64,000 nt of DNA from Parcubacteria group bacterium Licking1014_17 (GCA_007376485.1 VMGJ01000006.1:779-64778), one strand, 5' to 3'. Positions 4,601 through 62,778 are shown, counted from the first letter of the stretch. The notes: a model not told the origin generated them from the letters alone. A program made the numbers and translations.

Positions 4601-6763
4601 TTGTTTATGACCAATCTAAACACTCCCGTTGAAAAACTTAGCTATGTAGGGCCCAAAATGCTGCCGAGATTAAGGCATTTGGGTATTAAAACAATCCGCG
4701 ATTTGTTGCGGCATTTTCCGGCGAGGTACGAAGATTTCAGCAAACTAATATCACTGGCCGAAGTCGGGGAACCTAAAGTTGTAGTCAGCGTCAGGGGCGT
4801 CGTCAGGAAAATAAAAACAGACAGAATTTGGAAGCGCAGATTGGCAATTACCACCGCGATAATTGATGACGGCACAGGTAAATTAAGGGTCGTCTGGTTT
4901 AACCAGCCATATTTGCAGGATTCCTTTCCTGAAGGAACGGAATTGAGTTTGTCCGGCAAGACAGCCCTGGATAAACGGGGGCTATACTTATCTTCTCCGG
5001 TTTTTGAAAAAATAGGCAGAGCCGACGAAGATTTGGTCCATACGAGCAGAATCGTGCCAGTTTATCCCGAAACCGAAGGCGTTTCTTCCAAGTTTTTGAG
5101 ATTTTTAATAAAGCCGCTATTGGACAAACTGGGCGGTATCCCCGATTCTCTACCTGCCGAAATAGTAAAAAAATATAATTTTCCGGCTATCTCAAAAGCA
5201 ATAAAAAATATTCATTTTCCTAAAAAATTGGACGATGCCGAGGCAGCGAGAAAACGTTTTGCCTTTGAGGAACTGTTTTTATTCCAATTGAGAGCTTTGC
5301 TGGACAGGAAAAATCTGGAGAAAATGCCGGCTCCGAAGATTCTTTTTGATAAAGACGCAATTGCCAAATTCGTGAGAGGTCTACCTTTCCCGCTAACCAA
5401 CGACCAAAGATTGGCCGCTTTTGAAATACTGAAAGATTTGGAAAGAGGACGTCCCATGAATCGGCTATTGAACGGCGATGTCGGCTCCGGAAAAACCGTC
5501 GTTGCCCTGATTGCGATGTATCAAACGGTTAAAGCCGGTTACCAAGCGGTTATTATGGCGCCGACGGAGATTTTAGCTAAACAACATTTTGGCACTATTA
5601 CTTCAATTCTGGAAAAACAGAAAATAAACAACATAAAAGTCGGCTTACTGATTGGCAGTGAAGCAAGACAATGGCCCACGGATGAGATAACCGAAGCGGA
5701 TGTATCCAAAAAAATATTGAGAAACAAGGTGGCAAAGGGGCAGATAGACATTTTAATTGGTACCCACGCGGTCATCCAGAAAGATGTAGCATTTAATAAA
5801 CTGGCGTTGGTTGTTATTGATGAACAGCACAGATTCGGCGTGGGCCAAAGAATGAAACTGGTAAAAAATCAGGAGTTGGCGCCCCATTTACTCTCAATGA
5901 CCGCCACTCCCATACCTCGCACGCTGGCGCTGACTATTTATGGCGACTTGGATGTTTCATTGCTGAAGCAAAAGCCGGGCAACAGACCGAAAATTATTAC
6001 AAAAATAATACCGGCTAGAAGATCTGCGGAGGCTTATGAATTTATTGAAAATGAGATTAAAAAAGGCAGGCAGGTTTTTGTTATATGCCCTAGAATTGAA
6101 ACCCCATTAGAGACCGCGTCCGCCCAAGGCGGACTGCCTCTAACGGGGCAGGTTTCCCAAGCCAAACTAATGTGGGCGGAGGTCAAAGCCGTTACCAAGG
6201 AATTTGAGAAGTTGTCCAAGGAAACGTTCCCCCACCGCCGGGTGGCTATGCTTCACGGAAAAATAAAGCCCAAGGAAAAAGAAAAAATTATGAATGATTT
6301 CAGGGCGGGGGAATACGATATTCTGGTTTCAACTTCGGTCGTTGAGGTTGGCGTGGATATTCCCAACGCCACCGTGATGATGATTGAATCGGCGGAAAGA
6401 TTCGGCTTGGCCCAGCTCCATCAGTTCAGGGGCAGAGTGGGAAGAGGCGAGCACCAGTCGTATTGTTTTTTGTTCACCTCAAGCGGGGGAGAGTTTGGTT
6501 CCAGATTAAAAGCCCTTGAAAAAACCGGTGACGGCTTTGAGTTGGCGGAAATGGACCTTCAAATCCGCGGTCCCGGCGAATTCACCGGCGTGAAGCAGTC
6601 TGGCATTCCCGATTTAGTAATGGCTTCTCTGGGCGATATTGAACTTATAAAAAAAGCCAGAAGCGAAGCGGAGCAGATATTAAACCAATCTCCAACGCTG
6701 GCGAATTATCCCCTTCTGCGCGAAAGATTGGAGTATATCCAAAAAATGGTGCATTTTGAGTGA
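4601..6763 (+). CDS. recG: ATP-dependent DNA helicase RecG
   Basis: 720 aa. Wedge/OB N-terminus, Walker A GDVGSGKT, DEQHRFG box, helicase C motifs. Confidence 0.9.
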   Translation: MFMTNLNTPVEKLSYVGPKMLPRLRHLGIKTIRDLLRHFPARYEDFSKLISLAEVGEPKVVVSVRGVVRKIKTDRIWKRRLAITTAIIDDGTGKLRVVWFNQPYLQDSFPEGTELSLSGKTALDKRGLYLSSPVFEKIGRADEDLVHTSRIVPVYPETEGVSSKFLRFLIKPLLDKLGGIPDSLPAEIVKKYNFPAISKAIKNIHFPKKLDDAEAARKRFAFEELFLFQLRALLDRKNLEKMPAPKILFDKDAIAKFVRGLPFPLTNDQRLAAFEILKDLERGRPMNRLLNGDVGSGKTVVALIAMYQTVKAGYQAVIMAPTEILAKQHFGTITSILEKQKINNIKVGLLIGSEARQWPTDEITEADVSKKILRNKVAKGQIDILIGTHAVIQKDVAFNKLALVVIDEQHRFGVGQRMKLVKNQELAPHLLSMTATPIPRTLALTIYGDLDVSLLKQKPGNRPKIITKIIPARRSAEAYEFIENEIKKGRQVFVICPRIETPLETASAQGGLPLTGQVSQAKLMWAEVKAVTKEFEKLSKETFPHRRVAMLHGKIKPKEKEKIMNDFRAGEYDILVSTSVVEVGVDIPNATVMMIESAERFGLAQLHQFRGRVGRGEHQSYCFLFTSSGGEFGSRLKALEKTGDGFELAEMDLQIRGPGEFTGVKQSGIPDLVMASLGDIELIKKARSEAEQILNQSPTLANYPLLRERLEYIQKMVHFE

Positions 6764-6780
6764 AAATATTATCCGACACT

Positions 6781-6925
6781 CGGCCAACGCGCTTTTCGGG
6801 ACTGGAATTTCCCCAGCGTGGAAATTTCATCTGGTGAGATTGTCTCTGTTTGTCAAGGCATCCGCCAACCGGCGGAGCCGTTGACAAAACCGTGCCAGAG
6901 GCAATCTCAACAGCCCGAAAAGCAC
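6781..6925 (+). repeat. Structured intergenic repeat, copy 1 (about 140 nt, the same family as 27545..27690)
   Basis: About 85% identity with the copy after xerC. Conserved ttgacaaaacc and caatctcaacagccc. A long helix shows compensatory changes between the copies. Confidence 0.55.
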
Positions 6926-6990
6926 ATTGGCCTTGTTTTTTTATTTATCCCATGACAAACTGGAGTCAATAATTAATTTTTTTTAATAAT

Positions 6991-7650
6991 ATGAAGCCAA
7001 TAAACAATTTTGATACCCCCGATATTAACACCAATACCCGCAAGAGCTGCAAAAAAATGACACTGGCGATAATTTTGGCGGTGGTCATAACAGCCCTGAT
7101 TGTAGGCGGAATTATGTATTTATGGTTAGGGCGTAGCGGACAAACCCCAAATCCAATGGTTTCTTATACGCCCACTGCTACACCGACAAGCGTACCAATG
7201 GATACTACTGGCTGGAAAACTTATACAAACACACGATATGGATTTGAGTTTAGATATCCGAAGAACTGGTTTTTAATTGATAATTCAACCACCGGTAACG
7301 GGATCGTAAGCTCTTATGACGTCGCTTACTACGAGAAGGAGGATAACAAGAGTAAGATGATCGAAAATCCGATAAAAATTATATGGTCGGCTCTCGACAT
7401 TTCACCCAACTATAAAACCGCCGATGAGGAAATCAAAGCACTTTTGGCACGCTACACAACGCAGGTCAGCGAAACAAAGTTTAATAATTTTGTCGATTCC
7501 CCGGTGCTTGTAAGAAATGATGAAGGCGGTGGCACGACTTACTATTTGGCGCACGATAAATTTTGGGTGGAGATTGGATGCAGTGAGGCAGTGGCAGCGG
7601 CCAATCCAATTGTGGGGCTGGTTCTCTCAACCTTTAAGTTTACAAAGTAA
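6991..7650 (+). CDS. Membrane-anchored secreted protein with Pro/Thr linker; function unknown
   Basis: 219 aa. N-terminal TM segment, then a PTATPTSVP linker. Confidence 0.5.
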   Translation: MKPINNFDTPDINTNTRKSCKKMTLAIILAVVITALIVGGIMYLWLGRSGQTPNPMVSYTPTATPTSVPMDTTGWKTYTNTRYGFEFRYPKNWFLIDNSTTGNGIVSSYDVAYYEKEDNKSKMIENPIKIIWSALDISPNYKTADEEIKALLARYTTQVSETKFNNFVDSPVLVRNDEGGGTTYYLAHDKFWVEIGCSEAVAAANPIVGLVLSTFKFTK

Positions 7651-12150: not shown

Positions 12151-14763
12151 TTACAGTGGCGGTTCCATATCGGCCCAGTTCTTGCCGACTTTAACGTCAA
12201 TCGCCAGCGGCACTTTGAACTGGTAAATATGCTCCATTATTTCCTTAATGGCTTCGACCGCCGGCGACATTGATTTCTCGCGGATTTCAAAAAGCAGCTC
12301 GTCATGAATCTGCAGAAGCAAATTAACATCCTCTTCCCAGCCCTCCTTTTTTATCCTGTCATAAATCCTTCTCATGGCTATCTTCACGATATCCGCCACC
12401 GTGCCCTGGGTGGGCATGTTTATGGCCATTCTCTCGGCTTGAGCCTCAAGCTGGGGCATCTGGGAGTGGATTTCGGGCAGCAACCGGCGGTGCCCGAAGA
12501 GAGTTTCAACATAGCCGTCTTTTCTCACTTTCCGTTTCATTTCGTCCATATACCAGGCGATTCCCGAAAACTCTTTCAGATATTTTTCAATAAATTCATT
12601 GGCTTGTTTCCTGTCCATGCCCGCCGCCCGGGCAAATCCCGCCGGTCCCATGCCGTAAATAATGCCGAAATTCAGGACTTTCGCCTGCCGGCGCATTTCT
12701 TTCGTAACATCGCTGAAATCCACGTCAAACACCTCTGCCGCGGTGCGCGTGTGAATATCTTCATTCCTTTCAAACGCGGCAATCATGGTTTTGTCATCCG
12801 CTATGTGGGCAACGATGCGGAGTTCCACCTGGGAATAATCAAACGAAACCAGCATAAAACCCTCGCGGGCGATGAATGCCTTGCGGAATTTCTGCCCCAG
12901 CTCGGTGCGGGTCGGGATATTCTGCAGATTTGGATTCTGCGAAGCCAAACGCCCGGTAGCCGTGCCGGTCTGGTCATAAGTGGTGTGCAATCTTTTATCC
13001 TCGGGATCTATCAGAGTCGGAAACGGTTCGATATAAGTAGTTTTCAGTTTTTGAAATTCCCTGTGCTGTAAAATTAAATCAATAATCAGATGCTCGTCGC
13101 GCAATTTTTCAAGTTCCGGCGCCGCCGTCGACATCGCGCCGCCCCCAGTTTTTTTGATTTTGCCTTTTATGCCCAGTTTTCCAAAAAGGACTTCCGCAAC
13201 CTGTTGGGGCGAATTAATGTTAAATTCCCCACCGGCAATTTTGTAAATTTTAGTTTCAAGTTTGGCTATTTCCTTTTCAACGAGCTTTAGAAGCGCGCCG
13301 ACAACCTTTATATCAACCAAAACTCCCTTGTTTTCCATGTAAGCCAGCACTTCTATAAGAGGCATCTCAATCATCCGATAGGGTGCTTCCATTTTTTGAG
13401 CTTCCATCTCTTTTTCCAATTTTTCTCGGACTTTAAAAATATGGCTTAAAACCGAAACCGCGGAGTCGCCCGTTGATTTGGAAAAAAGCCGTTCGGCGAC
13501 CCCGGAAAAGTTGTAATCCCTGATCGGAAAGCCAAGCATATAAGACGCGATTTTAGAATCAAAAACAAGACCCTTTAGTTCAATACCCTCTTTCAGTAGC
13601 AATTTCACAGTTGGCTTCAAATCGTGCCCGATTTTTTGTATTTCCGGGTCTTCAAAAATCTTTTTCACCGGTTCCAAGGCAAGATTTTCACTTTTTACCG
13701 AATAAATACGCAACCCGTCGGGTGAAACAAGCAAGCCGTCTTCGTCCGCCGCTACGGCTACAGTTTTTATCTTACTCGATAATTCTTTCGCTTTTTCTTC
13801 GGTCAGTTCGGCAATCAGTTTTACCTGCTCGGTCGCGGGGATTTCTTTACTCGCGCCGTTTCCCTCTTTTTCAATTTCCGCCGCTTCCGAAAGCCGGTTC
13901 ATCAAACTGCTGAAGCCGAGCTCGCGGAACATGTCTTTGACTTTGGAAATATCGGCGTTTTTCCGCCAGTCGGCTTTCTCCAAAGAGAAATCCACGTCCA
14001 AGTCGCAAACAATCGTTGATAGTTGTTTTGAAAAGTACGCCTGCTCTTTGAATTCTTTCAGTTTCGCCTGGAGTTTTTCGGATATGTCTTTGGTTTTACC
14101 CTTTTCAAGCGCTTTATACAAAGAATCCAAATCGCCGTAATTTTTAATAAGCTCCGACGCGGTTTTGTCGCCAACCCCGGGAACGCCTGGAATATTATCC
14201 GACGGGTCGCCCTTAAGCCCTTTAAAATCGGGCATCTGCGAGGGATTTAATCCAAAACGTTTAATCACCGCATCTTCGTCGTAAATGACCGTATCAGCCA
14301 ATCCTTTTTTTAGAGTGAACACGGAGGTTTTATCCCCTTCCACCAATTGCAGTGTATCCAAATCGCCGGTAGCAATTATTGTTTTCAAATCTTTTATTTT
14401 TTTGCTTTTGGTCGCCAAAGTGCCGATAATGTCGTCCGCTTCATAGCCCTGCTGTTCGTAAACCGGCACCCCAAACGCCGCCAACAGATTTTTTACTATC
14501 GGCATCTGTTCGTAAAGTTCATCGGGCGCTTTCACGCGGTGGCTTTTGTATTCGGCAAACTCTTCGTGGCGAAAAGTCGGTCCCGCCAAATCAAAAGTAG
14601 CCGCGATGTAATCCGGCTTAATATCTTTGATTGCCCTCAATAGTATTGAAAAAAAACCAAATACGGCGTTGGTTAAAATCCCTTTTGGCGACTTTAAGGG
14701 CGGCAGGGCATGAAAAGCCCTATGAACCAAAGCGTTGCCGTCTATAAGCATCAGTTTTTTCAT
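12151..14763 (-). CDS. polA: DNA polymerase I
   Basis: 870 aa. 5'-3' exonuclease N-terminus, polymerase motifs A/B/C (for example RRQAKVLNFGIIYG). ATGA-coupled to tsaE. Confidence 0.9.
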   Translation of the reverse strand: MKKLMLIDGNALVHRAFHALPPLKSPKGILTNAVFGFFSILLRAIKDIKPDYIAATFDLAGPTFRHEEFAEYKSHRVKAPDELYEQMPIVKNLLAAFGVPVYEQQGYEADDIIGTLATKSKKIKDLKTIIATGDLDTLQLVEGDKTSVFTLKKGLADTVIYDEDAVIKRFGLNPSQMPDFKGLKGDPSDNIPGVPGVGDKTASELIKNYGDLDSLYKALEKGKTKDISEKLQAKLKEFKEQAYFSKQLSTIVCDLDVDFSLEKADWRKNADISKVKDMFRELGFSSLMNRLSEAAEIEKEGNGASKEIPATEQVKLIAELTEEKAKELSSKIKTVAVAADEDGLLVSPDGLRIYSVKSENLALEPVKKIFEDPEIQKIGHDLKPTVKLLLKEGIELKGLVFDSKIASYMLGFPIRDYNFSGVAERLFSKSTGDSAVSVLSHIFKVREKLEKEMEAQKMEAPYRMIEMPLIEVLAYMENKGVLVDIKVVGALLKLVEKEIAKLETKIYKIAGGEFNINSPQQVAEVLFGKLGIKGKIKKTGGGAMSTAAPELEKLRDEHLIIDLILQHREFQKLKTTYIEPFPTLIDPEDKRLHTTYDQTGTATGRLASQNPNLQNIPTRTELGQKFRKAFIAREGFMLVSFDYSQVELRIVAHIADDKTMIAAFERNEDIHTRTAAEVFDVDFSDVTKEMRRQAKVLNFGIIYGMGPAGFARAAGMDRKQANEFIEKYLKEFSGIAWYMDEMKRKVRKDGYVETLFGHRRLLPEIHSQMPQLEAQAERMAINMPTQGTVADIVKIAMRRIYDRIKKEGWEEDVNLLLQIHDELLFEIREKSMSPAVEAIKEIMEHIYQFKVPLAIDVKVGKNWADMEPPL

Positions 14764-15206
14764 AATATAAAAATTTTTCTGGTGTTTTCGTCCACGTGGC
14801 TGATTTTAACGATGGTAGCGCTTTTGGGTAAAATATCTTTCACTCTTTCAGCCCACTCTATCAATATTATATTAACAGAATTTTCCATTAATTCCTCTAC
14901 GCCGATGGTTTTCAAATCATCCCCTCCCGAAAGGCGGTAGGCGTCAATATGAACCAGATTTTCATATGGTTTGAATTTCAGTGCCAGCTCGTATTTTTTC
15001 ATTAAAACAAAAGTCGGGCTGGTGATGTGCTTTTTTATTCCAAGTGCCTTGGCAAAGCCCTGCGTGAAGGTCGTTTTTCCGGCGCCCAGTTCGCCCGAAA
15101 GAGCGATAACAGCCGCCCATTTCCCGGGCTTGGATTTTGATATTTTTCGGGCAAAATCCCCGGCTATTTTCTTTGTTTCTCGGACGCTTTTTGACAAAAA
15201 TTCCAT
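14760..15206 (-). CDS. tsaE: tRNA threonylcarbamoyladenosine biosynthesis protein TsaE
   Basis: 148 aa. GELGAGKTTFTQGFAKALGI P-loop typical of TsaE/YjeE. Confidence 0.8.
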   Translation of the reverse strand: MEFLSKSVRETKKIAGDFARKISKSKPGKWAAVIALSGELGAGKTTFTQGFAKALGIKKHITSPTFVLMKKYELALKFKPYENLVHIDAYRLSGGDDLKTIGVEELMENSVNIILIEWAERVKDILPKSATIVKISHVDENTRKIFIL

Positions 15207-15575
15207 TGGTTAAGTCCCGTATGAAGTAAGAAACCTTCGGTTTCTGCCGAAATAACATTTCGGACTTCATACGGGATAATGATAGCCCGCGACGGCCGCT
15301 TTTTCAAACTCTTTGGTGATGCCGGTGAATAACGCCTTTTATCGCCACTCGTCCCGCCAGCGACGGGACTCGTTCCGGTGAAATCGCAAATTCGGTCTGC
15401 GATGCTCGCGCGTATTATATCGTAAACCGACCGTGCAATTTGCGATTTCAACGGCGCTAAAAGGCATTATTCACCTTACTAATGTCGCTGGCAAAGTCAC
15501 GCTGGCTCGCCCGCCTAAGTTTTGCGGAGCAAAATTTAGGCGGGCTCAAAGGCAGTTTACCCTCGGCGTAAAATA

Positions 15576-15603
15576 AAAGCCGTATCCTTTTCGTTGGATA
15601 CGG
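15576..15603 (-). terminator. Rho-independent terminator for 15618..16358(-)
   Basis: agccgtatcc-ttttcgtt-ggatacggct. On the minus strand it is followed by ttttatttt. Confidence 0.5.
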
Positions 15604-15617
15604 CTGCAAAGTTCTAA

Positions 15618-16358
15618 TCAGTTTTTGAATGGCGGAAGGATATGGACTACTCTCCCACCGGTTTCTGTCCTCTCTATGTCAATCCGGCACCAGACCTGTG
15701 CCGGCTCGCTCCGATACTCGGACCCCTTCGGGCAGTTGGGACATTGATTCTCCCACCTCACGTTTTCCCAGAAGTATGCTTGTATCGGTTTCGGCTGGTC
15801 GAGACCGACGGAAACCGATTCCCCGTTTTTCAACCCATCTCCGGCATCGGTAACACCGTTGCCGTTGATGTCAACGGGGCTGTCATCTAATATGACGATT
15901 ACCCCGTCGAACCCGGACTCATTGATAAATTTGTATTTGTAGTAAGTCCGGGTGGACTCTTGCCGTTGTTGTTCTTCTTTCATCATCTGGGAGTATGTTT
16001 CCTCCTGCTGCCGTTGTTTTTTTGCTTGGCGACGCTCATAAATGAGCGTGCCAATTGCCATACCCCCCTCGACTGTCGCCGCGGTGCGGTAAGCGGCCCG
16101 GTAGTTTCCGGTCGTCCCGTAAACCACCTGTCCCACAGCATAGCCGAGATTGCTCGGTGGTCCGTAGTATGAGCCATACGAATACGAACTTAACCGGTTG
16201 ACCAGACTCAGGTTGTTCTGAACAAGCCGGTCGACCTCGGAACCACCCTGGAACAGGTTCCCGCCGCGGAGTCTGTATCCGTGGCCGCGATGGCCCTGGG
16301 CGAATGCGGGGACAGTAACAAGAAGGGCGATGAAAACAAAAACTACTAATCTTTTCAT
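15618..16358 (-). CDS. Secreted hypothetical protein
   Basis: 246 aa. Signal peptide MKRLVVFVFIALLVTVPAFA. Confidence 0.5.
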   Translation of the reverse strand: MKRLVVFVFIALLVTVPAFAQGHRGHGYRLRGGNLFQGGSEVDRLVQNNLSLVNRLSSYSYGSYYGPPSNLGYAVGQVVYGTTGNYRAAYRTAATVEGGMAIGTLIYERRQAKKQRQQEETYSQMMKEEQQRQESTRTYYKYKFINESGFDGVIVILDDSPVDINGNGVTDAGDGLKNGESVSVGLDQPKPIQAYFWENVRWENQCPNCPKGSEYRSEPAQVWCRIDIERTETGGRVVHILPPFKN

Positions 16359-21160: not shown

Positions 21161-21320
21161 ATGTCATTTATGTCATAGTGACAAACTAATTATGTCATTT
21201 ATGTCACAGTGACATAAATGTATCGCGACATAACGTTTGTCACTATGTCACAATCTTTGTCACTCATGTCGCAATGTTTGTCGCGATCTTGTCATTTATG
21301 TCGTTGACACTTTGTGTCAT
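21161..21320. promoter_or_regulatory. Array of about 16 TGTCAY/GTGACA motifs with roughly 10-11 bp phasing, including a 32-bp tandem repeat and a perfect palindrome ATGTCAC-A-GTGACAT
   Basis: Lies in the 3' end of the methyltransferase gene and the promoter region of the DksA/TraR-comM operon. Tandem units at 21161..21192 and 21193..21224. Confidence 0.45.
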
Positions 21321-22206
21321 TGATGATATCGCAGATATCCTTCTTGATCTGGGGGTACTTGCGTAGCATTGCGAGGGGAGCCGCTTCGTTGATATCAAAA
21401 CCAATAGCATTCCTGCCCAACCGGCTGGCGGCATAAAGCGTAGTGCCGGACCCGGCGAAAGGATCCAAGACAGTATCTCCTTTCCGGCTGAAAAGACCGA
21501 TAAATCTTTCAGCCACCTCCGGAGGACATTCCGTGGAGTAATGAGAAAAAATATGTTCGTCTTTTATTAAGCCAGTTTTGTCCATTAACGGCTTAAGTGG
21601 ATTTATTAGTTGTTTGGGCAATATTTTTGACAAGCCGAATAAGAATCTGAAAATAAGCCGGGAATTCAATATTTTTGGATGGGTTTTAAGCGACCATACG
21701 GGGTCCCAGTAAAACTGTCTTAAAATCTCGCGGTAATTATTCGAAGAACCGCCTGTTTTCTGAAAAATTAAAATAAATTGAAATCTCGCGCCCCCGGATT
21801 TCATATCACCCCTGTCTTTCCGGAGATAACGGTCCCAAACCAGTAAATTTCTATAAATTAATTCAGGAGGCATGTTTTTAACGATGTCCGCGTGAAGGGG
21901 AATATAATTAAATGAGCCATCCTTATCTTGGCGGTACAAATCATGCAACCACATAATCAAAAAACCGCCGCCTTTCAATATTTGGGCGCACTCCTGCCAC
22001 ACTTTATTGATTTTCTCCAAAAAGGCCGGGTAATCCGGAATCGCGCTTAATTGAGAGTCGTCTCTGGAATATTCAACTTCATTCCAGTAAGGCGGTCCTG
22101 TCATTATCAAATCAACCGATTTGGGCGATAAAAAAGACCCCGCGTGGCGGGAGTCGGCTATGTAGTATTTGATTGAGGCCGGGAAAGCCGGGGTCTTTTT
22201 GGACAC
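21292..22206 (-). CDS. Beta-class N6-adenine/N4-cytosine DNA methyltransferase (motif IV DPPY before motif I)
   Basis: 304 aa. DLIMTGPPY near the N-terminus, VLDPFAGSGTT near the C-terminus. No adjacent restriction endonuclease is apparent. Confidence 0.75.
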   Translation of the reverse strand: MSKKTPAFPASIKYYIADSRHAGSFLSPKSVDLIMTGPPYWNEVEYSRDDSQLSAIPDYPAFLEKINKVWQECAQILKGGGFLIMWLHDLYRQDKDGSFNYIPLHADIVKNMPPELIYRNLLVWDRYLRKDRGDMKSGGARFQFILIFQKTGGSSNNYREILRQFYWDPVWSLKTHPKILNSRLIFRFLFGLSKILPKQLINPLKPLMDKTGLIKDEHIFSHYSTECPPEVAERFIGLFSRKGDTVLDPFAGSGTTLYAASRLGRNAIGFDINEAAPLAMLRKYPQIKKDICDIINDTKCQRHK

Positions 22207-22214
22207 TTTTATTT

Positions 22215-23447
22215 TTATTGGCCGCCAGTACCGCCTTTGTAATTCAAAAGCGTATCCACAGCCAGTCTGAACGACTCTTTAGACGATCCAATTACCAGGT
22301 AATCGCCGCTGTTAATACTGACCGCGGCGACGGCAAACCCAAGGTTTTTATCGGCAACTTGAATATATTTGAAAGGCACACCGGAGTATACATCGTCGTT
22401 AAGAGAATTTCCGGTGGTTTGATACCCGAATATTCCGGCAAAATCACTCGGCATGTTGGCGGCCCAGTCGCTTATAGTTTTCTGAATATCCGAATCGCCT
22501 GATGATTTAACCACCAACACAATTCTATTGCCAACGAAGGTTCCATTATCGCTTTGATTATATAATCCCAAAATCCAGTCGGTGGAAGAAAAGAGGGCAT
22601 CGTCATTCAGTGCGGAGATATCAATACTAAACCTGTTCAGAAACTCGCCGAATGAATAAAGGACGCCGCCTTTGGTATCGCCGACTATTTGATAAGGATT
22701 TATCGAACCGGCGGCAACTTGTTCTGCGGCAATCGCGCTGGATAAAAGAGACAACGCGTCGCCGGTGTAGGGAAGAGTAATATCTTTGGCGATGCCGAAG
22801 ATTGACTCAGTGGTTAACGGTGTGGCGTTTCCGCTAACCGTAGGCGTAGGCGTTGCGTTTTCTCCGCCGCCGCCGACTGTTTTGTATATTATATAGCCGA
22901 TAACACCCAGCAAAATCAGCGCGATTACGGCGACTATTATTATTTTTAAAGTTTTAGACGGCGATTGCTGGGGAGGAACCGGAATCGTGCTTGAGGGCAT
23001 CGGTTTGACGGGACCCGGGACAGTCAGTTTCGGAGGCACAATGATTGGTGCCGGACTTATTGTATTTATTGGCGGGGCGGTCCTGATAACCGGTGCCGGC
23101 GCTGAGGTTGGCGGTTTAGGCGCGATGGTAGGCGGAGCCGGGGGCGGCGTGATGGCGCTTTTTATATCAACACTGGAACCAATCGGCTGGGAACCCTTTC
23201 TTAAAGCGCTGACATCTTCCTGCATTGTGCGGATGGTTGTTTTGATATTGTCGCCGCTGGGAATACCAGTCGCCTGCACGCCCATGGGCGGTGTGGCTGG
23301 TTTCGGACTTGTGGCAATTTGAGACGCTATATCAGCCGCCATGTCGTTTTTTACGGGAGGCGGAGGCGTAGGTAGCGGGGGATTAATATTGTTGTTTTGG
23401 GGAGGGCGAGTTGGCGCAGGACCGCCGATTGGATTTATGTCAGCCAC
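22215..23447 (-). CDS. Pro-rich single-pass membrane protein
   Basis: 410 aa. Extremely Pro-rich N-terminal half, one TM helix, C-terminal globular domain. Confidence 0.5.
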   Translation of the reverse strand: MADINPIGGPAPTRPPQNNNINPPLPTPPPPVKNDMAADIASQIATSPKPATPPMGVQATGIPSGDNIKTTIRTMQEDVSALRKGSQPIGSSVDIKSAITPPPAPPTIAPKPPTSAPAPVIRTAPPINTISPAPIIVPPKLTVPGPVKPMPSSTIPVPPQQSPSKTLKIIIVAVIALILLGVIGYIIYKTVGGGGENATPTPTVSGNATPLTTESIFGIAKDITLPYTGDALSLLSSAIAAEQVAAGSINPYQIVGDTKGGVLYSFGEFLNRFSIDISALNDDALFSSTDWILGLYNQSDNGTFVGNRIVLVVKSSGDSDIQKTISDWAANMPSDFAGIFGYQTTGNSLNDDVYSGVPFKYIQVADKNLGFAVAAVSINSGDYLVIGSSKESFRLAVDTLLNYKGGTGGQ

Positions 23448-26620: not shown

Positions 26621-27535
26621 ATGGGTAAAATTAACGAAATAAAATCCGAATTCCTGGAATACATCGAGATTGAGAAGAATCGCTCGCCGAGAACCGTGGC
26701 AAATTACGACCATTATTTGAGCCGCTTCTTTCAGTTCACGAAGCCGGAGTCCATTTCCGACATATCCGAGGACTCAATCAGAAAATTCAGATTGTATCTA
26801 AACCGGCTGGCTGATGAAAGGGGGCAACCGCTGAAAAAAGTCACCCAGAATTACCACGTAATCGCTTTGCGGGCGTTTTTGAAATATCTTACCAAGCGCA
26901 ATATCAAATGCGTGCCGCCGGAGCGAGTTGAGCTGGGCAAACAGGAGGAAAGAGAGGTTACTTTTCTGGACGAAAAAGAACTGGAAAAATTTTTGAAGTC
27001 GCCGGCGGGCGATTCGGTGGCAGCTTTGCGCGACCGGGCGATTCTGGAAACTCTTTTTTCGACCGGCTTGCGCGTTTCGGAGCTGTGTTCTCTGGACAGG
27101 GATGGCATCAATCTTGGCAGGGGAGAGTTTTCGGTCCGCGGCAAGGGCAATAAAATCAGGGTTGTGTTTTTATCGGATACGGCGAAAGAATGCCTGAAGA
27201 CCTACTTGAATAAGCGCATGGATGCCGACCCGGCTCTTTTTATCCGTGTTCCGAAGTCGGGCAAGTTCGAAAAATTTCCGGACCTGCGGCTGACTCCGCG
27301 AAGCATCCAGAGAATAATCACCAAATACGCGATTATATCCGGAATTGTGGGGAAAAAAGTTTCGCCCCACACCCTCCGTCATTCTTTCGCGACCGATTTG
27401 TTGCGAAACGGCGCGGATATCAGGTCTGTGCAGTCGTTGCTTGGGCACGCCTCCGTTACGACGACGCAGATTTACACCCATGTTACCGATAAACAATTGA
27501 GAGAGGTTCACGAGCGGTTCCACAGGAAGAAGTAA
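26621..27535 (+). CDS. xerC: Tyrosine recombinase XerC/XerD
   Basis: 304 aa. C-terminal catalytic HTLRHSFATDLLRNGADIRSVQSLLGHASVTTTQIYTHV with the active-site Tyr. Confidence 0.85.
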   Translation: MGKINEIKSEFLEYIEIEKNRSPRTVANYDHYLSRFFQFTKPESISDISEDSIRKFRLYLNRLADERGQPLKKVTQNYHVIALRAFLKYLTKRNIKCVPPERVELGKQEEREVTFLDEKELEKFLKSPAGDSVAALRDRAILETLFSTGLRVSELCSLDRDGINLGRGEFSVRGKGNKIRVVFLSDTAKECLKTYLNKRMDADPALFIRVPKSGKFEKFPDLRLTPRSIQRIITKYAIISGIVGKKVSPHTLRHSFATDLLRNGADIRSVQSLLGHASVTTTQIYTHVTDKQLREVHERFHRKK

Positions 27536-27544: not shown

Positions 27545-27690
27545 CTTCCTAACTCTTTTTCGGGACTGGATTTTCTCCAGCGATGAAAATCCATCTGGTG
27601 AGATTACCGCCATTTGTCAAGGCGTTCACTTCGTTCAGCCGTTGACAAAACCATGCTGGCGGCAATCTCAACAGCCCTCGAAAGAGTTAG
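27545..27690 (+). repeat. Structured intergenic repeat, copy 2 (the same family as 6781..6925)
   Basis: See copy 1. Immediately downstream of the xerC stop. Confidence 0.55.
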
Positions 27691-27718: not shown

Positions 27719-28081
27719 TTAGCCCTTGTATATCAGATGGATACTGCCGATAAGTGGCAGGGGTTTCATTTCGCCCTTTGAAGCGCTGATGATGCCCATT
27801 ATTAATAAAACCAGTCCGAAAAGTCCGATAAGCCAGCCGACAAAAAACACCCTCATCAGCAAAGAACCCACCAGCCATACGATTAAAATCAGCAGGTGCT
27901 GGTTGGCGTGGAACATCGCGAATTTGCTGTTCTTCGCTCCGGTAAGCAGAGGCACAAAAAACAGAACAGGGATTATGTATCCGATTATCGCCAATATCTT
28001 GTGTTTCTCGACGTCGCTTTGAGGAGCTGGCTGCTGCGGCTGCTGACCCCCGCCGGGTGTTTGTTGAGTTTGTTCGTCCAT
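27719..28081 (-). CDS. Small membrane protein with Gln/Pro-rich N-terminus
   Basis: 120 aa with three hydrophobic helices. Confidence 0.45.
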   Translation of the reverse strand: MDEQTQQTPGGGQQPQQPAPQSDVEKHKILAIIGYIIPVLFFVPLLTGAKNSKFAMFHANQHLLILIVWLVGSLLMRVFFVGWLIGLFGLVLLIMGIISASKGEMKPLPLIGSIHLIYKG

Positions 28082-29748: not shown

Positions 29749-30089
29749 TTTTTTGCCTCTCTCATTTTACATGACAAGGTACAACCATAACCCATCTAGT
29801 CAATTTGTTCGCAAGTTTAGGTTAATGAAAATATCTGAGAAAATCAAGTAAAAGCAGAAACCGTTATGGAAGGGGAGTTAGCTTCGACTCTGCCCTCGCC
29901 GTACATTCGGCCTAGTGGCATCAGTATTTCCTCACATTCGTTCGTTAATCGCTCGGGCAGGTCTGGCCACCGCCTCGCGATTTTGTCTGGTGACAAAATA
30001 TCGCTCCGGCGTTCAACTCTCCCACGCAAGGTAAGCAATTGCCTTGCTCTCGCCACCAAACAAAAACCCGCCTCAGGCGGGTTTTTGTT

Positions 30090-30446
30090 TGGTGGACTCG
30101 GGGGGAGTTGAACCCCCGTCTGCGGGTGGTCACAGGGAAGCACTACACGCTTGTTCCATTTAGTTTTGATCCGTGAGCCGTTAAACGGACAAAATGCTCA
30201 CAGCCCGCCACAGTTTAGTGCGATGAAGCCCCGTTATGGCGGCCAAAACTTCAAAGTTTCTCGCAATAAGCGTCTCATCCCGTTAGCGAGAATCGCGGGT
30301 GAAACGGATGCCTTAATTTAGGCAACTGCCATTACAGGCGTTAAAGCGTTGTAATTTGCACTTGTGTTTTTGCGGGTTTTTACAAGGTTCCGCGAACTTG
30401 GCGTGCGCTTCGGCTGATCATGCCTGCATCGAAGCCTTTCAAGCCC
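30090..30446 (-). ncRNA. ssrA: tmRNA (SsrA), about 357 nt
   Basis: 5' GGGCUUGAAAGGCUUCGAUGCAGG. 3' T-arm GGGGGUUCAACUCCCCC, then acceptor CGAGUCC-A-CCA with encoded CCA. Acceptor pairing gives the G3-U70 Ala identity pair. An intrinsic terminator follows, and smpB is 1 kb away. Candidate tag frame GCA AAT TAC AAC GCT TTA ACG CCT GTA ATG GCA GTT GCC TAA (about 30318..30359). Confidence 0.8.
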
Positions 30447-40416: not shown

Positions 40417-41754
40417 ATGGAAAAAGAAAAAAATTTGGAAAAAATCGTCTCATTGTGCAAACGCCGCGGCTTTGTTTTTCCCGGCAGCGAAATATACGGC
40501 GGATTGGCTGGCATTTATGATTATGGGCCGCTAGGCGTGGAGTTGAGTATGAATGTAAAAAACGCTTGGCGTCGGGAGATGTTTCGTCTGCATGAAAATA
40601 TTTTCGAACTGGATAGCAGCATACTTATGCAGAAAAGAGTTTGGCAGGCATCAGGCCATACGTCCGCCGGCTTTACCGATCCTTTGCGGGAATGCAAAAA
40701 ATGCCACCACCGTTTTCGCGCCGACCACCTGACCGAGCAGGGGATTGATAAATGTCCGGATTGCGGCGGCGACCTAACGGAGCCGAAACGATTTAACCTT
40801 CTCGTAGAAACACATTTGGGGCCGGTTCAGGATGACTCTTCTTTGGTGTATCTGCGAGGCGAAACCGCCCAAGGTATTTACGTGAATTACAACAATGTGA
40901 AGATATCTCAAAGTGCTTCACTTCCGTTTGGAATTGGTCAGATTGGCAAAGCCTTCAGAAACGAAATCACTCCCGGGCATTTTATTTACCGAATGCGCGA
41001 GTTTGAACAGATGGAGCAGCAATATTTTATCAAACCATCCGAAGCGGATAAGTATTTTGAACAATGGAAAGAAGAGCGCCTGCACTGGTATTTGGACTTG
41101 GGCATCAAGAAAGAAAATCTGCGTCTCCGCCCGCACGTCACCGGTGAATTGGCCCACTACGCCAAGGCCGCCGTGGATATTGAATATAATTTCCCCTTTG
41201 GCTGGCATGAAATTGAAGGCATTCATAATCGGGGCGATTGGGATCTTTCTCGGCACAGCGAATATTCCGGCCAAGATTTATCGGAAATTGATACTGGAAC
41301 CGGGAAAAGATTTTATCCCTATGTCATTGAAACTTCGGCTGGGGTTGACCGTTTGACATTAGCGTTTATTGTTGATGCCTATGAGGAAGTTATCGGCGGG
41401 CGGACCACCACTACGCAAAGCATAAAAGAAATAGAGGTCGTTTTGAAATTAGACCATCGGCTATCGCCGGTAAAAATCGCCGTTCTGCCTTTATCCAAAA
41501 AAGAGCCGCTGGTGAATATGGCGAAAGATATTGCCAGTAAATTGCGCAAAAACTGGAATGTCCAATATGACGATACTGCCTCTATCGGCAAGCGTTACCG
41601 CCGACAGGATGAAATCGGCACGCCCTTCTGCATATCCGTGGATTTTGAATCCATTGACGACAAAAAAGTTACCGTCCGCGACCGGGATACGATGAAGCAG
41701 GAGAGGATGGAAATAGGGAAATTAGAAATTTATATTGCCGAAAAGCTGAAATGA
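40417..41754 (+). CDS. glyQS: Glycine--tRNA ligase (dimeric class II type)
   Basis: 445 aa. Typical GlyRS N-terminus FVFPGSEIYGGLAGIYDYGPLG and class II motifs. Confidence 0.9.
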   Translation: MEKEKNLEKIVSLCKRRGFVFPGSEIYGGLAGIYDYGPLGVELSMNVKNAWRREMFRLHENIFELDSSILMQKRVWQASGHTSAGFTDPLRECKKCHHRFRADHLTEQGIDKCPDCGGDLTEPKRFNLLVETHLGPVQDDSSLVYLRGETAQGIYVNYNNVKISQSASLPFGIGQIGKAFRNEITPGHFIYRMREFEQMEQQYFIKPSEADKYFEQWKEERLHWYLDLGIKKENLRLRPHVTGELAHYAKAAVDIEYNFPFGWHEIEGIHNRGDWDLSRHSEYSGQDLSEIDTGTGKRFYPYVIETSAGVDRLTLAFIVDAYEEVIGGRTTTTQSIKEIEVVLKLDHRLSPVKIAVLPLSKKEPLVNMAKDIASKLRKNWNVQYDDTASIGKRYRRQDEIGTPFCISVDFESIDDKKVTVRDRDTMKQERMEIGKLEIYIAEKLK

Positions 41755-42833: not shown

Positions 42834-43334
42834 ATGAATGAATACGAAAAACCCGAACAAGAAGACGAGGGTTTTGTAAAAAATGAACTCGAGAAATTAA
42901 GAGCAATAAACGATCGTGAATGTGAGTCATTAGCGACGTTTTTGCAGTCTCATATTGATGAAATATATAGATTACTTATTGAAAGAAACAAAGGATCTGC
43001 GGATTTTGAAGGTTTATGCGAAGTTGCCGCGGAGGAACTCCATAAAAGATTAAAAGCCGCCGGTTATGACAGTAAGATGGTTGAAGGAGATCTGGTGGTA
43101 GGCGAGAAGGATTCTTTATCTCATATGATTAATATGGTCAAATTCCCAAACCACTGGGTATTGATTGATCTAACCATCAGGCAATTGCCTTGGTATAAAA
43201 ACAAGAGCTGGCTTCTTGAGGCGTTGCCTCCCGACAACGCAGAAATAAAGAAATTTCTGTATGACCGATATAACTGGTGGCTGGGTCCGAATCATGATTA
43301 TAAAAGGGAGCCATTTGTTAACTGCAAGTCTTGA
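42834..43334 (+). CDS. Small transglutaminase-like (Cys-His-Asp) protein
   Basis: 166 aa. GLCEVAAEELHKRLKAAGY ... HMINMVKFPNHWVLIDLT. Confidence 0.4.
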   Translation: MNEYEKPEQEDEGFVKNELEKLRAINDRECESLATFLQSHIDEIYRLLIERNKGSADFEGLCEVAAEELHKRLKAAGYDSKMVEGDLVVGEKDSLSHMINMVKFPNHWVLIDLTIRQLPWYKNKSWLLEALPPDNAEIKKFLYDRYNWWLGPNHDYKREPFVNCKS

Positions 43335-43443
43335 ATCTCTTGACGACAAAAAAGTCACCGTCCGCGGCCGGGACACAATGAAGCAGGAGAGGGTGGAAAT
43401 AAAAGAATTGGCAGTCTATTTTAGGAAAATACTTGATATATAA
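43333..43443 (+). pseudogene. Displaced duplicate of the glyQS 3' end
   Basis: The 70-nt core at 43333..43402 is about 90% identical to 41647..41716. It encodes ESLDDKKVTVRGRDTMKQERVEI versus the GlyRS C-terminus ESIDDKKVTVRDRDTMKQERMEI. Confidence 0.7.
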
Positions 43444-48616: not shown

Positions 48617-48625
48617 AAGAGGCTA

Positions 48626-48654
48626 TTGACAAATACTTTGGCTTGACTTATAAA
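48626..48654 (+). promoter_or_regulatory. Sigma70 consensus promoter cassette, copy 1 (TTGACA-N17-TATAAA)
   Basis: ctattgacaaatactttggcttgacttataaagga. Near-identical copies at 49339..49367 and 51945..51973. Confidence 0.6.
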
Positions 48655-48739
48655 GGAAGTATCAGTGTTGTCAGCTCTTTTGTGCTCTTCAACAATCGAA
48701 ACCGAGGCTAGGGTTTCTAGCCTGAAAGTGAGGTATGAA

Positions 48740-49244: not shown

Positions 49245-49338
49245 CCCCCAACTGAAACTCCATAGGCCGTCAGAATGTGGCATATACATACATTTTAACC
49301 CCCAAATGTCGCTAAGCCGTTGAACCATTACGTTACTC

Positions 49339-49367
49339 TTGACAAATACTTTAGCTTGACCTATAAA
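49339..49367 (+). promoter_or_regulatory. Sigma70 consensus promoter cassette, copy 2
   Basis: cttgacaaatactttagcttgacctataaaggagatagttgtt. Confidence 0.6.
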
Positions 49368-49410
49368 GGAGATAGTTGTTTTAAATCTGCGGAAAGGGGG
49401 TGAGGTAATA

Positions 49411-51909: not shown

Positions 51910-51973
51910 AGAGTGCCAAATGTGGTGGGGACGCATACAGGCTATTGACAAATACTTTGGCTTGACCTATAAA
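51910..51973 (+). promoter_or_regulatory. Conserved upstream box plus sigma70 consensus promoter cassette, copy 3
   Basis: Box agagtgccaaatgtggtggggacgcatacagg, 51910..51941. TTGACA 51945..51950. TATAAA 51968..51973. Confidence 0.6.
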
Positions 51974-52058
51974 GGAGATAGTTGTTCTTTAGGTGCTTTT
52001 TTGGCTCTTTAACTCAAAGGTTTCATTTTCCGGCTATGCCGGCGAAAGGAGGAAGGAA

Positions 52059-54924: not shown

Positions 54925-55851
54925 ATGAGCAAGAATAAATTTTTAAATAAAAAAACTATACTGCCGGTGATTTTGACGGTGTTGGTGATGAGTGCTGTTG
55001 TTTTTTTGGGAACCAGAGAAGGCAATATAGCGATTGGCGCCACGCCTACACCGACGAAAACCAAGACGCCAACACCTACTCCGCATCCAACTTCTACCCC
55101 GATTCCAACAAAGACTCCAACAAAAACACCTACTCCAACGCCGACTAAAACTTTGACCCCGACGCCTACGCCAACAGCGTCATTGCCGCCTCCTCCGAGT
55201 CAGCCGACAATCACCGCGGCGGGGGATTGCTATTCGGGGCCCTTCACTGCCCAGATTTCATGGACGGGCGCGCCCGGTTCCGGTTTTTACGTGGACGTAG
55301 ATGTCAATGAGTCCACTTTTTATGATTATTCTTTCTACAATAAATCCGCCGGCACGAGCACTCAAACCGATTCGGCGAATTTTCTCGGCGGCTGGCCAAG
55401 CCAAGACCAAACTTTGGTGATGATGCCCGGCGTTACTTATTACGCCAGAGTTTATAACGGCCAACACAGCCCGACGAGCGACCCCTTCATAAAACCGTAT
55501 TGCCCGAGCGTGCCGGGAACAACGAGCTGGATTTCGCCGCCTTATCCCTGCCCTCAACCAAATTTTGAATACAATCCGGTAAAGCCGTCATCGCAGAAAC
55601 CGGTGGACTTTACCGACAAGACCGTCTTTGGCGACGGCGGCACGCATCTTTTCAGCTGGGATTTCGGCGATAACAACACCAGTTCCGACCAGAATCCGAC
55701 GCATACTTACACCGCCAGCGCCAGCTACAACGTGACTTTGACCGCGACGGACAATTCTTTGACCCCACCCTGCACCTGCTCCGTCACCAAACCTCTAAAC
55801 ATCGGCAAGAAAAAATCTCCTCCGATTTTCAAAGAAGTGAGGCCAATGTGA
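54925..55851 (+). CDS. Secreted protein with Pro/Thr linker and C-terminal PKD-like domain
   Basis: 308 aa. FSWDFGDNNTSSDQNPTHTYTASASYNVTLTATDN is a PKD signature. The last 33 nt are duplicated at 56023..56055. Confidence 0.6.
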   Translation: MSKNKFLNKKTILPVILTVLVMSAVVFLGTREGNIAIGATPTPTKTKTPTPTPHPTSTPIPTKTPTKTPTPTPTKTLTPTPTPTASLPPPPSQPTITAAGDCYSGPFTAQISWTGAPGSGFYVDVDVNESTFYDYSFYNKSAGTSTQTDSANFLGGWPSQDQTLVMMPGVTYYARVYNGQHSPTSDPFIKPYCPSVPGTTSWISPPYPCPQPNFEYNPVKPSSQKPVDFTDKTVFGDGGTHLFSWDFGDNNTSSDQNPTHTYTASASYNVTLTATDNSLTPPCTCSVTKPLNIGKKKSPPIFKEVRPM

Positions 55852-56022
55852 GGAACTCACGCCGTTTTAAGCGGGCGAGCCCCCTCGCTACGCGCAAACC
55901 CCCAGCGAGGGTTCGCGCTGCCTTGTGACCTCGCTCGTCCCCCCGCAGAACCTGCAGGGGGACACCATGCCCGCTCGGTCACAAAGGCCGCTTGAGGGCC
56001 TGCCCGCTTTACCATGATGAGC
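55852..56022. repeat. GC-rich 171-bp insert flanked by 33-bp direct repeats (55819..55851 and 56023..56055)
   Basis: Repeats cctccgattttcaaagaagtSaggccaatgtRa, 31/33 identical. The insert is far more GC-rich than its surroundings and contains compound hairpins. Confidence 0.6.
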
Positions 56023-56041
56023 CCTCCGATTTTCAAAGAAG

Positions 56042-56560
56042 TCAGGCCAATGTAATGTAGTCAAGAAAATACTTTAGTACCGGCAGTTGCAAGGGGAAAA
56101 ATATCTCCGGTTTTGTTTGTAGCATCTCTTTTAATTCTGAAATGGTTACCCATTTCGGGTCTTTGACCTCGGCAGGATCAGTTTTAACGTCTCCTTTAGT
56201 TTCACATAGAAAAACAAATCCAATCCAAGGCAAACCGTTTTCAGATTTGAGTATTTGCTGGCAAATGAAAGGTTTAAAAGCGAAGAACTTATCCCGATTT
56301 TCATGCTCTAAAACCCGGGTTTGATAATCGTCAATGATTTTTGTAATTTCAAGACCGCACTCTTCCTTAACTTCTCGCCTTAATGCGTCATAAACATTTT
56401 CATAAGGTTTTATAACTCCTGCCGGTATTTCAATCATACCCGAATAGGCAGGACTTACTTCTGGCTTCCAGCGTGTTTGGATAAATACCTCCTTTTCTTT
56501 TTTATCTGCGTTATTTCGTATTAATATTGCCGAAACTACCGCCTTTATTTCTGTTTCCAT
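56042..56560 (-). CDS. NUDIX hydrolase
   Basis: 172 aa. Nudix box G...REVKEECGLEI. Confidence 0.75.
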   Translation of the reverse strand: METEIKAVVSAILIRNNADKKEKEVFIQTRWKPEVSPAYSGMIEIPAGVIKPYENVYDALRREVKEECGLEITKIIDDYQTRVLEHENRDKFFAFKPFICQQILKSENGLPWIGFVFLCETKGDVKTDPAEVKDPKWVTISELKEMLQTKPEIFFPLQLPVLKYFLDYITLA

Positions 56561-57238: not shown

Positions 57239-57327
57239 TATTTTGTAATTATAACATATCTTGAAATTATTTCAGGATTATTGTACCATTCCATATAGTT
57301 TTGTTCTTTGTTGCGGAGGGAAATATT

Positions 57328-57657: not shown

Positions 57658-57782
57658 CGCAAGCACAAGTGCATCTCTAGAAGCCCCAAATCCTATTGGG
57701 GCTGTTTTTTAAACAGGTTGAGTTTTATGATTTATTTTGACCTGCTTTGCTACGCCAAAACTTTCCTAATTTAAAGCGGGAT

Positions 57783-57916
57783 TACATTTTATGCCGCAAA
57801 ACTGCCTTTGAGCAGTACAGCGAGCCAAGTTTTGCTTGGTCCGCCTTGGGCGGAAAACTTGGCGAGGTATAAGCGGAGATTTTCGCTGGAGAAATCGAAG
57901 CATCTGCGAAAAGGCA
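57783..57916. repeat. Nested inverted-repeat element: 17-bp perfect terminal IR gccgcaaaactgccttt / aaaggcagttttgcggc enclosing a 9-bp IR and an inner hairpin
   Basis: Seen directly. Lies between convergent genes. MITE-like or a complex bidirectional terminator. Confidence 0.5.
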
Positions 57917-57950
57917 GTTTTGCGGCCACGAGGGGCGATGTTCTTAAGCT

Positions 57951-60794: not shown

Positions 60795-60796
60795 CA

Positions 60797-62646: not shown

Positions 62647-62778
62647 GGAGTGTTTCGCCTCAAATCACCATTCGCCCGCCCAGCGAGCGGGCTTATTCAG
62701 GTTAGACCTCAAATTCCTTCGGCGAGCTCATGACCATGCAATTTGAGGTCTAAACAGTGCTTTGAAGCAAAACACTCC
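62647..62778 (+). other. Structured intergenic element: outer 9-bp helix (ggagtgttt/aaacactcc) enclosing a GC hairpin and a 13-bp perfect stem (tagacctcaaatt/aatttgaggtcta)
   Basis: Seen directly between prfB and ftsE. Confidence 0.4.

Follow-up and report, generated by a model that had tools for sequence, protein, structure and literature searches.

What are the two similar, strongly foldable sequences that follow recG and a Xer-like recombinase gene in Parcubacteria group bacterium Licking1014_17? The 64-kb stretch of this genome that we analysed (hereafter the window) was originally described as carrying two copies of a structured repeat, about 85% identical over some 130 nt, for which a small ncRNA, a 3' UTR element and a mobile repeat were offered as explanations. 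CPR/Patescibacteria genomes are about 1 Mb in size, tightly packed and thought to be poor in repeats. It is unexpected for a CPR genome that about one spacer in ten should be filled by a G+C-rich, shape-conserved element of 130-150 nt, as is the case here. In the following sections we describe the members of the family, the fold that they share and the strand that adopts it, and their positions relative to genes in this genome and its relatives.

Members of the family

Both sequences are present where the original prediction placed them. Their similarity is genuine, at a lower figure than the one first given: 101 positions are identical over a core of 125-128 nt (79%), or 74% on the 143-column model alignment, the best blocks being one of 67 nt at 84% and one of 41 nt at 90%. 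In a MAFFT alignment of the pair, the identical runs TTTTCGGGACTGGA, CATCTGGTGAGATT, TTTGTCAAGGC, AGCCGTTGACAAAACC and GGCAATCTCAACAGCCC are separated by short differing blocks.

Three covariance models were used in the search for further members: R1, built from these two copies (c1 and c2); R2, built from three copies and run unfiltered; and R3, built from seven sequences. The first extra copy, c3, was found by R1 (match at 15327-15469), and c4, c5 and c6 were added by R2 (matches at 62650-62772, 55874-56003 and 57800-57923, respectively); over the window R3 returns six copies at 76-138 bits and nothing else convincing. By these models the window holds six copies or more instead of two, and one further member (r1) is present among the relatives' loci, so that our sample consists of seven sequences. 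In the list below, the motifs are the two invariant ones described in the next section, and the strand on which they read as written is called the motif strand.

c1, 6782..6930: folding strand probably minus, motifs CCAGCG and ACCGTGC read on the plus strand; 123-170 bits
c2, 27549..27690: folding strand probably minus; 137-163 bits; identical in ENA contig L003
c3, 15324..15472: folding strand probably minus, motifs on the plus strand; 67 bits with R1 (E = 9e-17), 130-134 bits with R2 and R3
c4, 62647..62776: folding strand probably minus; 59-86 bits; inner arm shortened
c5, 55869..56009: folding strand probably minus; 36-96 bits; about 70-71% G+C
c6, 57799..57927: folding strand probably plus, the motifs of this copy alone being on the minus strand; 19.5 (R2) and 76 (R3) bits
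r1, L009:769-914, in a Yanofskybacteria-like relative: 42 bits with R2, 94 bits with R3

A plain pattern search (CCAGCG followed by ACC[AG][AT]GC within 110 nt) recovers the same six intergenic sites in the window, together with two matches inside genes at which the spacing is wrong. A weak candidate at 30011-30112 (21 bits) was rejected; it is without both motifs and overlaps the tmRNA terminator.

The elements are 125-150 nt long, and their G+C content is 48-70% versus about 30-49% in most spacers of the window. Pairwise identity ranges from 34 to 79% overall, with c1 and c2 the closest pair (74-79%), and falls to 34-49% between subfamilies. The relative's copy r1 is 56-60% identical to c3 and c4 (60% to c4), whereas c1 and c2 are only 41-49% identical to them; r1 is thus nearer to c3 and c4 than are c1 and c2, so that either the subfamilies predate the split between the genomes or the elements move between genomes. 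Since the subfamilies are common to genomes whose RecG proteins are only 64% identical, the family is old. Sequence similarity alone reveals two of the six window copies, and repeat finders based on sequence can miss repeats that are defined by structure.

No known family accounts for these elements in the collections that we searched. A scan of the whole window with Rfam 15 (4227 models, gathering score) yields the tmRNA and one tRNA and assigns the elements to no family, and four copies examined at E values up to 5-10 gave only chance matches to hairpins and microRNA precursors. A pattern specific to the 5' half of c1 and c2, the only one with which reference genomes were scanned, gave two chance matches over GTDB representative genomes, both in coding DNA. 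There were no matches over JGI metagenome contigs for a pattern from the 3' half of c1 and c2, nor over JGI metagenome contigs and viral contigs for a degenerate pattern fitting c1-c4, nor for c1 by blastn against phage and plasmid collections. In the literature on CPR structured RNAs and palindromic repeats we found nothing comparable.

Fold, covariation and the strand that folds

The elements have the shape of a Y, that is, a three-way junction of a closing helix (P1), a small hairpin (P3) and a long arm (P2). P1 spans 16-27 bp; its inner part is weakly homologous between copies (..AAC.C-CTTTTCG.. on the motif strand), and its outer 4-9 bp are copy-specific in every copy, the flanks being unrelated between copies and complementary within each. 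This outer, copy-specific part of the helix had been overlooked in the original prediction. On the motif strand, P1 and P3 are separated by 2 nt (AC or AT). The P3 stem is a covarying helix of 5-9 bp which carries an invariant CCAGCG loop, the next base being A in six of the seven sequences and T in c1. P2 begins with a helix of 3 bp and, in c1-c4, a G.A mismatch; two 7-bp helices follow, the second of them hypervariable (and unpaired in c5), then a bulge, an inner helix of some 11 bp, reduced in c4 and c6, and a variable apical loop. The 7-nt bulge, ACCRWGC, is found on the 3' side only of the motif strand (ACCGTGC in c1 and c3, ACCAAGC in c6). On the folding strand the two motifs read GCWYGGU (bulge) and CGCUGG (P3 loop).

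The compensatory changes first noticed between c1 and c2 are borne out. In the helix in which GTCTCTG/CAGAGGC becomes ACCGCCA/TGGCGGC, five of the seven pairs have changed and pairing is kept except for one G.U in c1 and one A.C in c2; the small hairpin likewise shows compensatory change. Substitution between these two copies is blockwise, with none of the 18 pairs in the neighbouring helices altered. The added copies hold the helices rather than breaking them at random: compared with c1 and c2, c3 differs in the sequence of nearly every helix, and CCAGCG, the G.A mismatch, ACCGTGC and the helix lengths are kept.

On seven sequences the covariation is far stronger than on two. In the seven-sequence alignment, which was itself fitted to a covariance model, both sides have changed in 42 of 45 pairs, and 90% of cells are paired, as against 32-45% when the 3' partner is slid by 1-3 columns; on the same fitted alignment the covariation score is 0.83 versus 0.24 in shuffles, with none of 500 shuffles reaching the observed value. 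RNAalifold independently predicts essentially the same structure, and c1 and c2 fold far better than shuffled sequence (-87.3 and -61.0 kcal/mol, z = -9.6 and -7.5, respectively; 0 of 200 shuffles equal either). The only invariant columns are those of the unpaired motifs, CCAGCG in the P3 loop and ACC..GC in the one-sided bulge. As the helices covary freely while the 13 motif bases stay constant at 34-49% identity, something presumably reads the folded single strand through these bases. Covariation by itself is nonetheless insufficient to establish an RNA, as a single-stranded DNA substrate leaves an identical signature.

Paired changes can also arise in the absence of selection, as template switching during replication produces them in a single event and maintains hairpins (PMC8794818). 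The elements might accordingly be functionless quasi-palindromes, in which switching between the arms makes the paired changes and lengthens the palindrome outwards; the blockwise differences between c1 and c2 and the copy-specific outermost pairs of P1 fit such a history. Arm-to-arm copying would, however, erase asymmetric features, and therefore cannot explain the survival of the one-sided 7-nt bulge, the side hairpin with its loop, the G.A mismatch (c1-c4) and a C.A at one closing-helix position (c1, c3, c4) in copies whose helices have hardly any sequence in common. A strand-biased excess of wobble pairs, described below, is likewise unexpected from templated correction. We regard this explanation as very improbable.

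The original prediction assumed that the plus strand folds. Minimum free energies (MFE) for the motif strand and its complement favour the complement:

c1: -87.3 versus -87.6 kcal/mol
c2: -63.6 versus -70.3 kcal/mol
c3: -68.4 versus -76.9 kcal/mol
c4: -53.1 (0 G.U) versus -72.0 (8 G.U) kcal/mol
c5: -77.4 versus -97.5 kcal/mol
c6: -66.3 versus -70.9 kcal/mol
r1: -74.3 versus -99.8 kcal/mol

The complement folds equally well or better in all seven copies, with a gain of up to 20-25 kcal/mol. Wobble pairs point the same way: when whole elements are folded by MFE, G.U pairs number 25 for the complement versus 6 for the motif strand (binomial P about 9e-4), and ungapped alignments of P1 contain, on the motif strand, 122 Watson-Crick pairs, 3 G.U and 16 C.A, the last being G.U on the complement. 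One P1 position is C.A in c1, c3 and c4 and C-G in c2 and c6; read on the complement, this is the ordinary alternation of U.G and C-G in a real helix. Among the 45 core pairs there is no wobble strand bias (6 versus 5). From the energies and wobble counts we consider, with good confidence, that c1-c5 probably fold on the minus strand and c6 on the plus strand. Covariation between two copies can thus get the structure right yet the strand wrong. These wobble counts bear on the strand and not on the molecule; as G.T pairs are tolerated in DNA hairpins too, the bias cannot separate RNA from single-stranded DNA. We also considered a bias with respect to replication and rejected it, as only four of the six copies fold on the lagging-strand template (GC skew minimum near 32 kb).

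Gene context, transcription signals and orthologous sites

The genes adjoining each copy are as follows.

c1: recG 4601-6763 (plus) and a PsbP_2-like gene 6991-7650 (plus); tandem
c2: Xer-like recombinase gene 26621-27535 (plus) and a MamF_MmsF/DUF4870 gene 27719-28081 (minus); convergent
c3: tsaE 14760-15206 (minus; tsaE-polA) and a 246-aa ORF 15618-16358 (minus); tandem, motif strand antisense to both
c4: release-factor gene 61657-62622 (plus) and an ABC ATPase gene 62840-63523 (plus); tandem
c5: PKD-domain gene 54925-55851 (plus) and a NUDIX gene 56042-56560 (minus); convergent
c6: 118-aa ORF 57301-57657 (plus) and a 101-aa coiled-coil ORF 57951-58256 (minus); convergent
r1: upstream of both lepB and a 115-aa ORF, between their divergent promoters

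Every copy is intergenic, in spacers that are tandem, convergent or (r1) divergent, and the elements, at 130-150 nt, nearly fill them. Read along the motif strand, five of the six window copies begin 13-25 nt past the stop of a gene with that orientation; for the original pair the distances are 18 nt from the recG stop (6763) and 13 nt from that of the Xer-like gene (27535), in agreement with the limit of 20 nt first reported. Each of the three elements in convergent spacers is closer to the gene for which its motif strand is sense, and T-runs were read by eye after the element on the motif strand at c1 and, loosely, at c2 (weak, on both strands). These positions suit a plus-strand 3' UTR element, which would be co-transcribed with the gene before it and would terminate the transcript or stabilise its 3' end, and this was among the explanations first offered. 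However, the closing helix, with its 16 C.A, is poor on the motif strand, whose MFE is worse by 19-25 kcal/mol in c4, c5 and r1; c3 is antisense to both of its neighbours, and r1 is upstream of two divergent promoters. We saw no T-run after c3, c4, c5 or c6, a scan for intrinsic terminators called none of the elements, and termination does not need invariant loop and bulge sequences. Only three tandem contexts are informative (two sense, one antisense), so that orientation relative to genes is not significant. A 3' UTR role is therefore improbable, and of the explanations first offered the mobile repeat gives the best reading.

The folding strand could instead be the one transcribed, as expected of a paralogous family of small structured ncRNAs in which one protein binds both motifs and the hypervariable helix and apical loop differ between members. 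We consider such a family a serious competitor, if a rather doubtful one. It would accommodate the depth of the covariation with an invariant loop and bulge at 34-49% identity, the raised G+C of the elements, the G.U asymmetry that singles out one strand, and the persistence of old subfamilies across genomes with 64% RecG identity. Promoter-like sites are also present on that strand at c4 (TTGATA-17-TATAAT, minus strand 62839-62811, 11/12 matches) and, more weakly, at c1 (TTGACT-16-TAAATA, just upstream on the minus strand). At the other copies such sites are absent or misplaced: none was found for c2 and c5, and the sole -10-like hexamer of c3 falls inside the closing helix. We found no promoter or terminator common to the copies, and no transcriptional logic fits them all. 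Canonical terminators at 15605-15578 (c3) and 57682-57703 (c6) separate the element from the upstream gene on the folding strand, which at c1 and c4 is antisense to both neighbours. The promoters that flank r1 were identified by eye (TTGCGC-16-TATAAT for lepB, TTGATA-17-TAAAAT for the 115-aa ORF). Six genes of one type in 64 kb of a genome of about 1 Mb would moreover be extraordinary for an ncRNA family, and it is difficult to reconcile with the empty orthologous sites and the insertion scar described below.

Two observations on these spacers may be recorded here. The 411-nt spacer that holds c3 (15207-15617) is unusually crowded for a compact genome, with two unrelated strong hairpins at about 15213-15282 and 15500-15545 in addition to a minus-strand terminator. 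A conserved small ORF that starts from an AUG or GUG in the bulge was sought and rejected, as the frames vary in length between 5 and some 27 or more codons and show no conservation.

We then compared the sites occupied in the window with the corresponding loci of relatives, of which about 170 kb was fetched and searched with unfiltered models; synteny overlaps among these loci, and distinct sequence is nearer 100 kb. The window RecG matches that of Parcubacteria group bacterium Licking1014_17 at 100% identity, and its nearest other matches are about 65% identical (Yanofskybacteria, Paceibacterota). A second public assembly of the region, the sole further source given by exact matches to the Xer, S15 and TsaE proteins, is base-for-base identical to the window. 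The element after recG is absent from eight loci of relatives, in which recG directly adjoins the following gene, the two being convergent or overlapping. Upstream of tsaE, the model search finds no copy in locus L005, and the spacer in L010 is merely 92 nt long. The site of r1, whose host has a RecG 64% identical to that of the window, holds no copy in a lineage whose LepB is 73% identical; only 59 nt separate Pth from lepB there. Copies are also unevenly distributed, with six in 64 kb here versus one in about 100 kb of distinct sequence from relatives. At the DprA-TopA junction of L009 (L009:3147-3686), the two genes are separated by 540 nt, including an assembly gap of N's, and are 3 nt apart in L015; the interval holds a G+C-rich hairpin of about 200 nt, with a 17-bp helix followed directly by ACCATGC (12.6 bits with R3), which could belong distantly to the family or represent another type of insert.

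The sequences that flank c5 retain a direct repeat:

Left repeat, 55819..55859: carries the end of the PKD-domain gene, final codons and stop included
Right repeat, 56023..56063: runs into the NUDIX gene at its 3' end; in the frame of the PKD-domain gene it still reads ...EVRPM-stop

The repeat is 41 nt long at 88% identity, with a 31-nt core containing one mismatch, and none of 300 shuffles scores equally. As the right repeat keeps both gene ends, the PKD-domain and NUDIX genes would once have overlapped at their 3' ends; the simplest history suggested by these sequences is that some 170-200 bp was inserted between the overlapping ends and the overlap duplicated. No significant flanking repeats were found at the other copies (shuffle-tested). 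Read on the motif strand, P1 has CTC before it in c1, c4 and r1 and TTC in c2, and in most copies TT or TA after it. The pattern, identified post hoc and with helix boundaries uncertain by 1-2 nt, hints weakly that insertion favours a particular site.

Gain and loss at orthologous sites, the scar at c5, the local density and the lack of a transcriptional logic make an inserted selfish repeat the best reading of the family. We tentatively favour, at somewhat short of an even chance, a lineage-specific selfish intergenic repeat, inserted into this CPR genome and defined by its structure. We infer that the copies are mobile; they would then be insertions, and not conserved regulatory parts of the genes that they adjoin. 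The form that matters would be the folded single strand, of DNA or possibly of RNA, and a protein acting in trans would recognise the Y shape together with the two invariant unpaired motifs. The helices would consequently be free to vary as long as pairing is kept, as in attC sites and the hairpins of REPINs.

Several points nevertheless count against an inserted repeat. The window contains no mobilising enzyme, Pfam scans of nearly all of its genes showing no transposase, HUH nuclease or reverse transcriptase. The sole recombinase is the Xer-like protein beside c2, which is of the ordinary XerA/XerC type (239 with the XerA model, cutoff 220; 130.6 bits with the integron integrase model TIGR02249, cutoff 265). 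The copies share no termini, and only c5 has direct repeats at its flanks. Deep divergence with structure kept is, furthermore, the classic mark of functional RNA genes, and recent MITEs and REPINs are far more alike than are these copies. If the elements are mobile, they point to a further, structure-specific mobilising enzyme; if they are RNAs, this uncultured phylum possesses a new class of multi-copy ncRNA.

Comparison with known systems and other features of the window

The general kind to which the family belongs, the structured intergenic repeats of bacteria, is known; this is an unusual variant in an unusual host. REPINs are predicted to form hairpins in single-stranded DNA or mRNA, and compensatory changes on both sides of the hairpin are common in them (PMC3116915). 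Both REPINs and the present elements are non-coding intergenic hairpin repeats of about 100 nt with many copies per genome; neither has coding capacity of its own, so that mobilisation must come in trans, and both persist for long in a lineage. They differ in that a REPIN consists of two inverted copies of a conserved REP, with invariant 16-mers at both ends, around a spacer, and forms a simple hairpin, whereas here the conserved parts are two distinct, unpaired, one-sided motifs, the ends are copy-specific and the fold is a three-way junction. CCAGCG and ACC..GC are not inverted copies of each other, and the arms contain no sequence conserved across subfamilies. REPIN populations are near-identical, in contrast to the 34-79% identity found here, and no gene for a RAYT (Y1/HUH transposase) was seen in Pfam scans of nearly all genes in the 64-kb window.

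By analogy of working, the elements appear closer to integron attC sites than to REPINs, although by its defining features the family belongs with neither. Integron attC sites span 57-141 nt. In both cases the site is defined by a folded single-strand structure with few conserved unpaired or extrahelical bases and a variable terminal structure, and sits just past a stop codon while the complementary (bottom) strand folds; the likeness is one of behaviour only. Sequences resembling R boxes are present in some copies, with AAC in c1, c2, c3 and c6 and its partner GTT in c2 and c6 or ATT in c1 and c3. Against the full 7-mers (RYYYAAC...GTTRRRY), five or six of the seven positions match, and c4, c5 and r1 are without them. 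Unlike attC sites, the copies form no cassette array and are dispersed among housekeeping genes (recG, tsaE-polA, xer, release factor) over 64 kb; the window has no integron integrase, the fold lacks an unpaired central spacer of the kind that divides R- from L-like boxes, and P3 has no counterpart in attC.

Other structured repeats, namely ERIC/IRU, Correia (NEMIS), BOX, RUP and the Rickettsia palindromic elements, are similarly intergenic, 100-150 nt long and strongly foldable by prediction. They are often found at the 3' ends of genes, co-transcribed in either direction, and are variably present between related genomes. These, however, are known by sequence similarity, terminal inverted repeats and short target duplications, whereas the present family is recognised by structure and 13 unpaired motif bases. 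Conserved terminal inverted repeats, as in MITEs, are absent, and there is no target-site duplication of fixed length (c5 alone, 31-41 nt). With the ncRNA families of Rfam the elements share a level of covariation and invariant loops like those of curated families.

Three further candidates were rejected. The architecture of retron msr-msd is superficially alike, but there is no RT gene in the window or beside the copies, of which there are six; hammerhead and twister ribozymes are inconsistent with junction strands of only 0-3 nt and have no Rfam match; and the context is wrong for a T-box.

A broader reading is that the elements represent a previously undescribed class of Y-shaped single-strand scaffold (DNA or RNA) in CPR, which would insert beside gene ends and be read through its two unpaired motifs. 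The hypervariable helix and apical loop might then carry copy-specific information, whether in a dispersed attC-like or guide-like substrate of some recombinase or nuclease or in a new multi-copy ribonucleoprotein RNA. This seems unlikely as it stands, if conceivable. Pairing of the hypervariable helix with flanking DNA was considered and rejected, the only match being one of 9 nt at c4, which is not significant.

Several other features of the window were noted in passing. The 3' end of the tRNA gene at 60723-60794, CAAGTCTCACCTCCGGCT, is repeated about 130 nt downstream (about 60925-60945), and the interval (60723-60945) is G+C-rich, with three hairpins and a stretch complementary to the T-arm of the tRNA. 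The arrangement resembles a miniature insert flanked by an att-type duplication and would be, with c5, a second case of a structured insert with a duplicated gene 3' end on either side. A promoter-like repeat, TTGACAAATACTTTGGCTTGACCTATAAAGGAG, occurs three times upstream of genes (48620-48684, 49333-49397 and 51939-52003), once upstream of a cluster of TP-rich Ig/PKD/fn3 surface-protein genes.

Genes are mostly on the minus strand from 7.6 to 32.6 kb and mostly on the plus strand from 32.7 to 63.5 kb, and the cumulative GC skew reaches its minimum at the switch, near 32600; this is compatible with a replication origin, though no dnaA gene is nearby. At 21292-23447, after a 332-nt spacer, an N6/N4 DNA methyltransferase gene adjoins a 410-aa ORF without a Pfam match, and the pair is a likely restriction-modification system. 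It sits between dksA-like and pnp genes; in L005, the one relative's locus to extend this far, the DksA-like gene is followed by an unannotated ORF, after which the locus ends. Finally, a 92-nt direct repeat (83%; 41645-41736 and 43331-43422) links the 3' end of a class II tRNA-synthetase-like gene (40417-41754) to the end of a 166-aa ORF (42834-43334), which suggests a local duplication.
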